Below, in pieces: positions 3,490 to 58,150 of a DNA stretch of 64,000 nt (the stretch's first letter is position 1; every line of letters starts with the position of its first letter). The stretch comes from an uncultured Bacteroidales bacterium (GTDB lineage Bacteria > Bacteroidota > Bacteroidia > Bacteroidales > VadinHA17). The stretch lies in assembly GCA_963816345.1 (NCBI GenBank), contig CAWFKI010000004.1, positions 57,559 to 121,558 of the forward strand. Direction: 5' to 3'. The notes beneath the pieces were generated by a model. It ran no database searches. It was not told where the DNA came from and worked only from the letters and a program-made list of their open reading frames with translations. Both the position numbers and the translations under genes were made by a program.

Positions 3490-3655
3490 GGATTAAGAAT
3501 AGAATAAGAATAGATTAGGATTGGATTAAGATTTCTGCTGGTTGAAAATGAAAAAACATTACCATCCCTGTCATACCTTAAGTGCAGATCAGTTCAATCC
3601 CTGTCATCTGCGTGGCATTGCAGGGCTCAGGGCACGGAGCTCAGGGCACAGGGCA
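3490..3655. repeat. cluster of degenerate short tandem repeats (5/6-mer, 9-mer, 7-mer)
   Basis: ggatta-agaat-agaata-agaat-agatta-ggatt-ggatta (from 3490); atcagttca-atccctgtc-atctgcgtg (3588-3614); cagggct-cagggca-cggagct-cagggca-cagggca (3621-3655). Confidence 0.75.
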
Positions 3656-5810: not shown

Positions 5811-5927
5811 ATGATTTCCATAATAAATGATATGTTCGGTCAATTGATATATTCCTGGCTTAAAGTTACATTTTTACTACATAATCTACGCTCTTTGCCA
5901 TGTGCTCTTCAGCCTTTTTGCAATTGT

Positions 5928-6005
5928 GCCATCGCGCCGTCACGCCATTAATTGTTTAGCTCCTTTTGCGATTAATAGTGGCTCAACGGCTCAACGGCTC
6001 AACGG
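5928..6005. repeat. upstream 8-mer tracts: three direct copies then three inverted copies
   Basis: gccatcgc-gccgtcac-gccattaa at 5928-5951; ggctcaac x3 at 5980-6003, whose reverse complement is in phase with GCCGTTGA. Confidence 0.85.
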
Positions 6006-6106
6006 GAAAATAGAAATGATTTGAAGATATTTTATTAAATTTGATATTCGCCAACATGTGGAATTGTTTGGCAAATAAATAATTAAATAATCTAAAAAGC
6101 TGCATT

Positions 6107-6457
6107 ATGGGAAATTTTCAAAAACATCGTGTCTGGCTTCTTGCCAAAGAATTAGCTGTTAATATCTACAAACAAACTTCAAAATCCACATTTTCAAAAG
6201 ATTATGGTTTAAAAGACCAGATCCAGAGATCATCAGTCAGTATCCCTTCAAATATTGCTGAAGGTGACGAACTTGAGACAGATAAACAATCTGTAAAGCA
6301 TTTCTATATTGCAAAAGGTTCAACAGCATAGTTGTTTACACAGCTGATCATTGCCCATGAAATTGGGTATCTTGACAAGGAAACCAAAGATGATTTGATT
6401 AATACCTGTTCACTTATTTCGGTAATGCTTACTAAATTAATCAAGGCAAGAAGTTAA
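6107..6457 (+). pseudogene. four-helix-bundle protein (23S rRNA IVS protein / Avd-like fold) with in-frame TAG
   Basis: VW...IY...F.KDYGLKDQIQRSSVSIPSNIAEG...IAKGSTA*LFTQLIIAHEIGYL...MLTKLIKARS*. TAG at 6329-6331 sits where the family has Glu. The frame continues 41 codons to TAA 6455-6457. TAAATTTG at 6036-6043. Confidence 0.9.
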
Positions 6458-6490
6458 TTACAATTTGATCGTTCTTCCTCGCTTCTTTTT

Positions 6491-6610
6491 GCCGTTAAGC
6501 CATTACGCCGCTGAACCGTTACGCCTTTGCGCCGTTGAGCCATCACGCCGTTACGCCATTACCTCGTTGCGCCGTTACGCCGTTGAGCCGTTATGCCGTT
6601 ATGCCGTTAC
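6491..6610. repeat. 15 in-phase copies of a degenerate 8-mer (consensus GCCGTTAC)
   Basis: gccgttaa gccattac gccgctga accgttac gcctttgc gccgttga gccatcac gccgttac gccattac ctcgttgc gccgttac gccgttga gccgttat gccgttat gccgttac. Confidence 0.95.
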
Positions 6611-6704
6611 CTGAAAATACTTCATGTAAGATATTTTTACCGATATTGTTTGAAAATGTATTAATCTTTGTGTAGAAACAATCTGAAATTAATTTATCCT
6701 GACT

Positions 6705-7637
6705 ATGAAAAAAAATCCTGAAAAAAAGCCGGCATATATATTAGAAAGTCTGCCTGACCACTACAATAAGGGATATCCCATTGTTAAGATCGGAATGTGC
6801 CAGGTTTACACCAGGGAATGGGAGGTTCAAGCCAATATCAAAAGAACGCTTGAAGCCATTGATCTGGCTTCACGGCAGGGAGCGGAAATTGCAGTTACCC
6901 CCGAATGTGTTTTCCATGGATATCCCGAAGACGATTCGATGGGTAAATCAGAATCCTTCAGGAAGAGATTATATTCTGTCGCAGAGCCACCGGACGGAGA
7001 GAATTTACAATTATTCAAAGAGAAAGCGAAAGAAAAGAAAATCTACATTCTGGTGGGTTTTGTTGAAAAGGGAGAGGGTGAATCGATTTATAATACTGCT
7101 GCCTTGATATCGCCTGACGGCCAATTTGTTTACCTCTACAGGAAAGTACACTGCAGAGATTTTGAAAATATACACCACCAGGGATATTTTTCACCCGGGA
7201 GCAATTTCTATACATCGGATCTCCTGTTCAGGGGAAGAAAATTCAATGTGGGAACAATAATCTGCTTTGACAGGGAGATCCCTGAATCATTGAGGTGCAT
7301 GAGATCATTAGGGGCAGAACTGGTGCTCTGCCCCCTGGCGACAGATACCAGTGATATGACAGTTTATAAAAACGAAGCTGATAATGAAATAATTACAAGA
7401 GCAGGATCAACATGCAATGAACTGTTCATGGTTGTTGTGAACCATGCTGGCAGATTTAACGGAGGAAGCTTCATAACAGGTCCAAAAGGAGAGCTGTTCT
7501 GCCAGATGAATGCTGATCCCGGAGTACTGACCTGTGAACTGCCCGTAGGTATCATCAAGAAAGAATTTCATAATAATCCGCTTGGCTGGATGGGATGGGG
7601 ATACAGGAGACCTGAGATCTATAATAAATATATTTGA
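6705..7637 (+). CDS. carbon-nitrogen hydrolase (nitrilase superfamily)
   Basis: Catalytic triad contexts VTPEC, YRKVH and ICFDRE. Confidence 0.9.
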   Translation: MKKNPEKKPAYILESLPDHYNKGYPIVKIGMCQVYTREWEVQANIKRTLEAIDLASRQGAEIAVTPECVFHGYPEDDSMGKSESFRKRLYSVAEPPDGENLQLFKEKAKEKKIYILVGFVEKGEGESIYNTAALISPDGQFVYLYRKVHCRDFENIHHQGYFSPGSNFYTSDLLFRGRKFNVGTIICFDREIPESLRCMRSLGAELVLCPLATDTSDMTVYKNEADNEIITRAGSTCNELFMVVVNHAGRFNGGSFITGPKGELFCQMNADPGVLTCELPVGIIKKEFHNNPLGWMGWGYRRPEIYNKYI

Positions 7638-45352: not shown

Positions 45353-45373
45353 ATCACAGGGACGGAGCTTGCT

Positions 45374-45544
45374 GCTAACCCCGGGCTAGGACTGTAACCT
45401 GCTAACCACGGCCTCGGGCTGTGACCTGCTAACCCCGGGCTCGGGCTGTGACCCGCTAACCCGGGCTCGGGCTGTGACCCACCAACCCCGGGCTTCAGCC
45501 CGGGGCTTAGGGTCGCTGACCCCGGGCTGAAGCCCGGGGCTAGC
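45374..45544. repeat. REP/BIME-like cluster: four 26-27 bp tandem units plus an inverted pair of palindromes
   Basis: GCTAACCCCGGGCTCGGGCTGTGACCY-like units at 45374, 45401, 45428 and 45455. CCCCGGGCTTCAGCCCGGGG at 45486-45505 and its reverse complement at 45520-45539. Confidence 0.9.
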
Positions 45545-56821: not shown

Positions 56822-58150
56822 ATGTTTAATTCTTCTCCTCTGAAATATTTAAATTATTTTACCCTTGTCATATCCCTGTCATATGGTTTCACCCCTTTAT
56901 TTTCAGCCAATATTCATTTACAGGATACTGTAACTGCCAGAATTCATTCAGGGGATACGATAACTGCCAGACATTCGGGGGATACGGTAACAGTCAGACA
57001 TCCAGGGGATACGGCGACTGCCGGAATTCATTCACAGGATACGGCAACTGCTAAAATTCATTCAGGGGATTCTTTGGCAACCAATCTCCGGTCAGCGGAT
57101 ACGGTAATTACCAATCCGAAAGAATTCAGAGCTGAAGAGATCACCCTGGGAGAACGTCTTTTCTTCGGACTGGTCTATACCAAAGATAAATCTGTTGACT
57201 GTGCCGCCTGTCACAATACCCGTACTTCGGACACTCTGAACTGGAATCCGGATGCGGTGGAAATTTCCAAAAAATATGCTGGAAAAAGTGTCAGCGATCT
57301 GACCAGGGTCTTGCTCAATCCGTCAGGGCAGAGAATGGCTCAGGTGCATAAAAATTTCCAGCTTGCTCCGGGGGATATAAGGCTTATAAAAGCTTATATG
57401 GACAGGCTTCCGGCAATAGGTCTTATAAAAGATAAACCTGTTCTTACAAATCTTTTTCTATTCATAGCAGCATCGCTCCTTTTCCTTTTTTCAACAATTG
57501 ACCTTATAATTACCAAATGGCTGAAAATGCAGTGGATAAATCTCCTTATACTGCTGGTCACGGCGATTTATATCACCTGGTCTCTTGTTATTGATGCCAT
57601 TAACATCGGCCGTTCTCCCGGTTACTCCCCCGATCAGCCTGTAAAGTTTTCGCATGCTATCCATGCTGGCCAGAATGGGACCGAATGCATTTATTGCCAC
57701 AGCTATGCTCCTTACAGCAAAATGGCCGGAATCCCTCCTGAGAATGTATGTATGAATTGTCATCTGATTGTCCGCAGCGGGGCCAGAACAGGTGCATTCG
57801 AAATAGCCAAAATACTGAGCGCTTATGAGAATAAAAAGCCGATAAAATGGGTTAAGGTTTACAATCTTCCCGATCATGTATTCTTCAGCCATGCCCAGCA
57901 TGTCGCAGCAGGAGGAGTAGCCTGCCCGGAATGCCATGGAGAGGTTGAGAAAATGGACAGAATAACGCAGGCAGGTGACCTGGCCATGGGATGGTGCATT
58001 AATTGTCACCGTACCAGGAACGTAAAATTTGAGGAAAATATTTTCTATACCCAGTACAGGGAACTCTCCGGAGCGATTCAAAGAGGAGCTTCGGACAGTA
58101 TTACTGTGGAGAGAATAGGTGGAACACAATGCATGAAATGCCATTATTAA
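56822..58150 (+). CDS. actA: alternative complex III subunit ActA (monoheme plus pentaheme cytochrome c)
   Basis: CAACH, two TM helices, then QPVKFSH..HAG with CIYCH, CMNCH, CPECH, CINCH and terminal CMKCHY. Confidence 0.9.
   Translation: MFNSSPLKYLNYFTLVISLSYGFTPLFSANIHLQDTVTARIHSGDTITARHSGDTVTVRHPGDTATAGIHSQDTATAKIHSGDSLATNLRSADTVITNPKEFRAEEITLGERLFFGLVYTKDKSVDCAACHNTRTSDTLNWNPDAVEISKKYAGKSVSDLTRVLLNPSGQRMAQVHKNFQLAPGDIRLIKAYMDRLPAIGLIKDKPVLTNLFLFIAASLLFLFSTIDLIITKWLKMQWINLLILLVTAIYITWSLVIDAINIGRSPGYSPDQPVKFSHAIHAGQNGTECIYCHSYAPYSKMAGIPPENVCMNCHLIVRSGARTGAFEIAKILSAYENKKPIKWVKVYNLPDHVFFSHAQHVAAGGVACPECHGEVEKMDRITQAGDLAMGWCINCHRTRNVKFEENIFYTQYRELSGAIQRGASDSITVERIGGTQCMKCHY
56912..57115 (+). 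repeat. in-frame 27/30 bp coding tandem repeat, seven copies, in actA
   Basis: IHLQDTVTAR/IHSGDTITAR/HSGDTVTVR/HPGDTATAG/IHSQDTATAK/IHSGDSLATN/LRSADTVITN. Confidence 0.9.

Follow-up and report, generated by a model that had tools for sequence, protein, structure and literature searches.

What does a four-helix-bundle gene of the PF05635/TIGR02436 family do outside ribosomal RNA and diversity-generating retroelements (DGRs), and why do tandem arrays of an 8-base word stand on both sides of it? The locus studied here ties that puzzle to another, the origin of dispersed intergenic tandem repeats with units of 7–10 bases. We analysed it in the window, a 64,000-nucleotide stretch of an uncultured Bacteroidales genome (G000), and in relatives of that genome. 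The reading to which we lean, with somewhat more confidence than doubt, is that the locus is a stop-codon-broken copy of a selfish cassette, one that goes in next to the ends of host genes and whose traces elsewhere are arrays with no gene.

Tandem-repeat and profile scans of the window find the three arrays and the gene where the original prediction had placed them. From left to right, the locus comprises:

5928 to 5951, plus strand: an extra, worn direct tract of three 8-mers
5975 to 6006, minus strand: the left arm, purine-rich on the plus strand, where it reads GGCTCAAC 3.2 times; the minus strand reads GCCGTTGA
6036 to 6043, plus strand: the TAAATTTG box; many Bacteroidales homologs have a comparable box, comparably spaced
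6058 to 6104, plus strand: a conserved leader, with GTGGAAT at 6058–6064 and AAAGCTGCA at 6096–6104, just before the ATG
6107 to 6457, plus strand: the four-helix-bundle gene (PF05635/TIGR02436), 116 codons, with a TAG at 6329–6331 (codon 75)
6491 to 6610, plus strand: the right, pyrimidine-rich arm, 15 in-phase units of GCC(G/A/T)TT(A/G)(C/A/T)

The right array has a period of 8, no indels, the consensus GCCGTTAC and a TRF score of 100, and its units agree with the consensus at 5–8 of 8 positions. TRF reports the inverted tract at 5980–6005 as 3.2 copies with 100% matches. The worn tract matches at 5, 7 and 6 of 8 positions in its three units and fades out towards ~5904. Since the order in homologs is purine-rich arm, gene, complementary arm, we take 5975–6006 and 6491–6610 as the true arms and 5928–5951 as an extra, likely a separate leftover array outside the usual arm pair. 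The inverted tract can pair with either direct tract, as had been claimed: the calculated duplex energy reaches −46.3 kcal/mol with the right array, with many registers available, and a weaker −25.3 kcal/mol with the left direct tract. Terminal inverted repeats enclose the open reading frame (ORF), a trait by which 23S rRNA intervening sequences (IVSs) are recognized.

The gene belongs firmly to its family. Its ORF scores 103.3 bits against PF05635 (curated cut-off 33.8) and 102.9 bits against TIGR02436 (cut-off 24), PF05635 is the only family matched in a Pfam search of the protein, and the DNA is as AT-rich as described (28–37% GC across 6000–6399). An AlphaFold2 model built on 54 homologs (pLDDT 93.7) matches 2GSC (Xcc0516; Foldseek TM 0.91), 2RLD (BT_0352; 0.83) and the DGR accessory protein Avd (4DWL; 0.77). 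The 2GSC and 2RLD entries contain five chains each, and by homology the locus protein would be a pentamer. The gene is nevertheless interrupted, a defect at which the original prediction had hinted only by speaking of a "repaired" protein. Codon 75, here TAG, is glutamate in nearly all homologs. Contigs of the public DNA runs X1 and X3 (~97% alike) have G at position 6329, so the TAG is either private to G000 or an assembly error. Internal stops were flagged in 4 of 80 homologs, one of which (L086) is a partial match. The closest homologs are mostly from Bacteroidales; two close homologs with arms (L051 and L127) lie on contigs labelled Methanosarcina and Methanophagales, reflecting transfer or mis-binning.

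Upstream of the gene is a leader that Bacteroidales homologs share. A sigma-70 scan returned 2 sites against 3.8 expected, nothing above chance, and of the proposed promoter there remain the TAAATTTG box and the leader conserved among homologs. The box resembles what we take to be the −7 promoter element of Bacteroidota, consensus TAnnTTTG. In Bacteroidales homologs the leader consists of a TAnnTTT(G/A) box and, just upstream of the ATG, TCGCTG(C/T)A, the counterpart of AAAGCTGCA; of the genome's 3899 crude ORFs, only 4 have an exact TCGCTG(C/T)A in the 40 nt before them. The same motif precedes an unrelated ORF in L109 and a Y1_Tnp (PF01797) gene (L294:318-764, genome G106) that has palindromic repeats and lies upstream of DPP-IV; judged by these sequences, it may serve mobile genes of the group as a common leader.

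The genes around the cassette vary. Here a divergent DPP-IV peptidase gene lies upstream and a carbon-nitrogen hydrolase (nitrilase) gene on the other side. The nitrilase ORF (window 6705–7637) has an N-terminus seemingly shorter than that of several orthologs; several nitrilase orthologs start with what we presume to be a twin-arginine-like stretch. As many as 46 families are represented among the upstream neighbours of 70 homologs. Where a neighbour was called, 17 of 27 homologs with a leader and 5 of 43 leaderless ones have an upstream gene that faces the other way; that leader-bearing genes often face away fits an internal promoter. No Rfam family was found within the 64-kb window and no rRNA at the 20 homolog loci scanned of the 80. 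The only RVT_1 gene of G000 (C4:249616) is on the same contig, ~186 kb from the cassette, and its 6 Y1_Tnp matches are all on other contigs. The described absence of adjacent rRNA and reverse transcriptase holds.

These arrangements bear on a reading in which the element works as an IVS-like RNA: the arms of a read-through transcript would form a long stem, RNase III would cut it and free a gene-bearing RNA, and occasional reverse transcription in trans would follow, with the protein as an Avd-like cofactor. The build is that of the ORF-bearing 23S IVSs excised by RNase III, as outlined in part of PMC4990558; the predicted fold of 5880–6640 pairs the arms around the gene (z −2.27); G000 has an RNase III gene besides its distant RVT_1 gene; and leaderless homologs are co-oriented with the upstream gene in 38 of 43 cases. 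We nevertheless consider this reading quite unlikely. The upstream gene faces away here, as in those 17 of 27 homologs with a leader, and transcripts therefore do not have to include the left arm. The arms do pair in many registers, as the claim that the whole gene could be looped out required, but with a promoter-like box inside the left arm and the upstream gene facing away, an RNA stem is doubtful at this locus. The cassette encodes no enzyme and has no obligate companion enzyme: a reverse transcriptase was found in only 21 of 46 genomes bearing the clade and not in the other 25; with 50 of 165 among genomes without the clade, dependence receives no support (P 0.08). Nor is the variation among units adenine-specific.

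The same build recurs in relatives: arm, leader, gene and complementary arm form a compact cassette, as first proposed. Of the 69 closest homologs with usable flanks (80 less 11 dropped for short or N-containing flanks), 56 have arrays to the left and to the right of the gene, as do 26 of 27 genus loci (30 less 3 dropped); the two sets overlap slightly. Among 399 small control ORFs only 6 do, and one of these is itself a family gene. Flanking inverted arrays are thus general in the family, the opposite of homologs generally lacking them. Among loci whose two arms have the inverted unit in common, the purine-rich one precedes the gene in 36 of 39 closest homologs and 17 of 20 genus loci. All 8 family copies in G000 have arms in both orientations, with five different words by eye, although some of the 8 are duplicates of each other. 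At C6:681978-685188 of G000, three near-identical four-helix genes with A+T-rich arms stand in tandem, one of them frameshifted, through duplication or as an assembly artefact.

The repeat word follows the protein. On a quick protein tree of 113 rows, repeat period changes 9 times against a shuffled mean of 33.5, and arm similarity climbs from 0.09 for proteins less than 45% identical to 0.60 for those more than 80% identical. In 13 of 14 cases (two near-ties) the word goes with the nearest protein in another genome and not with a paralog in its own, and variants are common to both arms of a locus in 22 of 23 loci. Covariation of word and protein clade had been anticipated and is borne out; it also follows from simple linkage alone, and the loci and genomes compared are kin and not independent samples, which makes P values look stronger than they are. 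No residues tracked a period of 7 versus 8 across independent changes, only clade markers appearing. With words specific to clades, the cognate word of each protein can be predicted, and its own genome supplies several others as non-cognate controls, with GGTAATC and GGGAGTTGAA as non-cognate words for comparison.

Most copies of the word have no gene beside them. The arrays bracket the gene as described, but they are not unique to the locus: the same 8-mer forms 62 further arrays in G000, which had been overlooked. At a three-unit score of at least 20, the 8-mer profile marks 65 places in G000, against 0, 1 and 0 in three block shuffles, and 63 of the 65 lie outside crude ORFs. More broadly, G000 has 310 arrays of period 7–11, of which 297 are outside ORFs; some are nested as palindromic stacks. 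One such stack (C5:1538200-1539000), with three different heptamer families around one apex and itself repeated in tandem, looks like successive insertion into a hairpin tip. The window itself contains a heptamer array of another genome-wide family (CAGGGCA five times, 3621–3655) just past the DPP-IV stop codon, a 27-bp tandem repeat of 4.6 copies with an internal palindrome (45372–45494) between an adenine-deaminase gene and uvrC, and a 27–30-bp tandem repeat (56906–57064) within the N-terminal region of an ORF for a 442-aa multiheme cytochrome c.

Arrays are concentrated where the gene clade occurs and extend beyond it. In a comparison of 211 genus genomes besides G000, the 8-mer pattern is present in every one of the 46 that have a close homolog, at a median of 27 hits. 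The 120 with no detectable close homolog divide into 70 that show it and 50 that do not, and 16 of them are array-rich (at least 30 hits). Outside the genus, 2 of 150 genomes of the phylum have the pattern, with a single hit each.

Could the arrays be neutral microsatellites, spread by slippage and recombination, with the gene moving passively between them? Intergenic heptamers with the same stop-codon polarity are described, in the sections of PMC4692102 that we draw on, with no protein partner, and the pattern in those 70 of 120 genomes without a close homolog agrees. Yet we find this very unlikely. The supposed passenger is under strong purifying selection, as its sequences indicate: dN/dS has a median of 0.087 across the 117 pairs, out of 197, whose dS was measurable. 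Every protein clade retains its own word within a shared host. Adjacent units are no more alike than far-apart ones. The claim that strict phase with loose sequence is unlike recent slippage stands as well, the degeneracy being position-specific with no decay along the array: fixed positions of the unit are ~94–100% conserved and variable ones take two or three bases.

Three further ideas about the units were rejected. A preference for five units, such as a pentameric protein might produce, is not seen: counts are 60, 20, 14, 11 and 3 for arrays of 2, 3, 4, 5 and 6 units, with 27 doublets in the shuffle. A fixed register between the stop codon and the first unit is unsupported, and the genome-wide pattern there concerns period 7, not the 8-mer. 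DGR-type adenine mutagenesis does not fit several unit families in which A and T are both conserved on one strand; variable positions differ in their spectra.

Alleles with and without the gene were found, at another site than the one proposed. The original prediction pointed to empty and occupied alleles between DPP-IV and the nitrilase. No empty allele of that exact site was found in the genomes sampled; in none other of them (22 genomes with sequence upstream of DPP-IV, made up of 11 loci and 13 genomes with 2 shared, and 12 nitrilase loci) are the two genes adjacent, nor does the four-helix gene stand at either site. In run X2 a contig of 225 nt departs from the sequence after 5873; as a single contig at depth 2, it is too weak to count. 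A joint of 6005 to 6553 in X3 was rejected as an excision; it has 27 letters on its short side and probably belongs to another array pair.

At the START_2/LptF spacer, by contrast, the same clade appears in several states. Among 102 genomes (111 loci less 9 with no adjacent lptF), 71 spacers are plain, 25 have an array only, 3 have the gene forward and 3 have it reversed. The classes are rough, some plain spacers keeping two or three units and a few array calls being other repeats, and the filled count is biased because the site was picked where filled alleles had been seen. On the host tree the states are scattered (27 changes against 28.2 when shuffled), and most proteins at this site have their nearest relatives at other sites. 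From the sequences, the pattern suggests repeated insertion, with inversion plus loss as the alternative. An arm begins within ~10 nt of the START stop codon in variable phase, arrays occur as inverted doublets, and the sister pair L177/L179 shows, by eye only, a possible 5-nt target duplication. Among arms-only alleles, one weak leader match (L235, E 0.002) was the only candidate remnant of the cassette. In different genomes, the clade's cassette also lies in opposite orientations in two more host spacers (loci L154/L160 and L146/L148/L171), which presumably adjoin dksA-like and upxY-like genes.

The gene is patchy, with 0–21 copies per genome. A search for identical copies recently placed at new sites found none, homologs being at most 80% identical with dS above 1.5. 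The four-helix protein had no match in PADLOC, PHROGs or viral contigs, and its plasmid matches are distant cyanobacterial ones only.

The same evidence can be set against a regulator useful to the host, in which the protein would recognise the periodic word in transcripts or DNA. The many arrays at gene ends would then be where it acts on termination, RNA stability or nucleoid organisation, and the arms of its own gene would serve autoregulation. Strong purifying selection, the intergenic position of nearly all arrays and unit positions that resemble a binding consensus would all suit such a role, as would polarity: within 40 nt of a stop codon lie 67 of 140 G-rich arms and 18 of 127 C-rich ones. 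A regulatory role has also been proposed for TAACTGA repeats, according to part of PMC4679880. What makes a regulator unlikely to us is the scatter of array presence over the host tree at one orthologous spacer, the patchiness of a gene that sits next to unrelated genes and is broken at this locus, and array lengths that fall off steadily with no favoured unit number.

If the locus is a selfish cassette, as we prefer, its working might be as follows. The two arms would pair as single-stranded DNA or RNA, and an Avd-like oligomer would bind the periodic stem. In Avd, portions of a preprint report (bioRxiv 10.1101/2023.10.23.563531), all five protomers contact an RNA stem-loop and flipped-out bases are held between subunits. 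The chemistry would fall to a host or trans-acting enzyme encoded outside the cassette, and intact copies may maintain or spread arrays in trans, as RAYTs do for REPINs. Several observations count against this account: the proteins have a median net charge of only +2, while the same preprint describes Avd as positively charged; no residue follows the repeat period; no enzyme is encoded and no reverse transcriptase is obligate; neither an empty allele of this site nor recent identical copies were found; 16 genomes are array-rich with no detectable close homolog; and no phage carriage was found.

A bolder version, which we hold only tentatively and think doubtful, has the four-helix protein confer specificity on a class of selfish elements that spans phyla and is so far undescribed. 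As an Avd-like ring, the protein would read its cognate periodic word of 7–10 bases and direct a host enzyme to copy or extend arrays at gene ends. If true, this would account at once for the S23p ORFs in rRNA intervening sequences and for the heptamer and octamer repeats that have long gone unexplained in many bacteria; should spread in trans with no self-encoded nuclease hold, it would be a new way for small DNA elements to move. In the full-text literature covered (main texts, few from subscription journals), no paper ties the family to flanking tandem arrays. The family has also been seen in cas loci, as a passage of PMC3936711 records.

Several known systems resemble parts of this cassette. 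DGRs share a fold, Avd and the locus protein superposing at the TM given above with 13% identity (the closest solved homolog being the five-chain 2GSC). The cassette is no DGR despite that fold, set beside the DGR account in the accessible part of PMC10053308: it has neither an adjacent reverse transcriptase nor a template/variable repeat pair, its units show no adenine-specific variation and its protein has low net charge.

The dispersed arrays recall known short repeats. GGGAATC heptamers of Xanthomonas and Nostoc form intergenic arrays, often inverted pairs, with the G-rich strand after stop codons, the polarity seen here (Rehm et al.; PMC4692102, in part), and TAACTGA repeats of Beggiatoaceae, Cyanobacteria and Bacteroidetes are likewise short intergenic tandem arrays, often in inverted pairs and with that polarity (PMC4679880, in part). 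What sets the cassette apart is the link of its arrays to one particular gene clade; in the main texts of those two papers, "four helix", "S23" and "intervening" have 0 occurrences.

Closer are the ORF-bearing 23S IVSs and the REPIN-RAYT system. The IVSs of Leptospira and Coxiella have a PF05635 gene (the S23p ORF) looped between terminal inverted repeats, low GC, sporadic distribution and, in Coxiella, reported ORF decay, as far as PMC4990558 was available. The cassette instead lies outside rRNA, its arms are 8-mer tandem arrays and not one 28-bp stem, and it has its own promoter-like leader, occurs in either orientation and is accompanied by many gene-less arrays elsewhere. REPIN-RAYT systems, as sketched in the consulted portion of PMC3116915, combine few genes with many small extragenic inverted-repeat units, tie gene groups to their own repeat groups and have doublets that can form hairpins. 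The cassette shares the pattern of many gene-less extragenic copies (62 arrays), inverted doublets (START_2/LptF) and one gene group. Its protein, however, is a four-helix bundle with no HUH/Y1 nuclease domain, and its units are head-to-tail 7–10-mers and not palindromic REPs. The class is apparently a widespread, undescribed variant of IVS/REPIN-like cassettes, and the locus itself is a broken, ordinary member of it.
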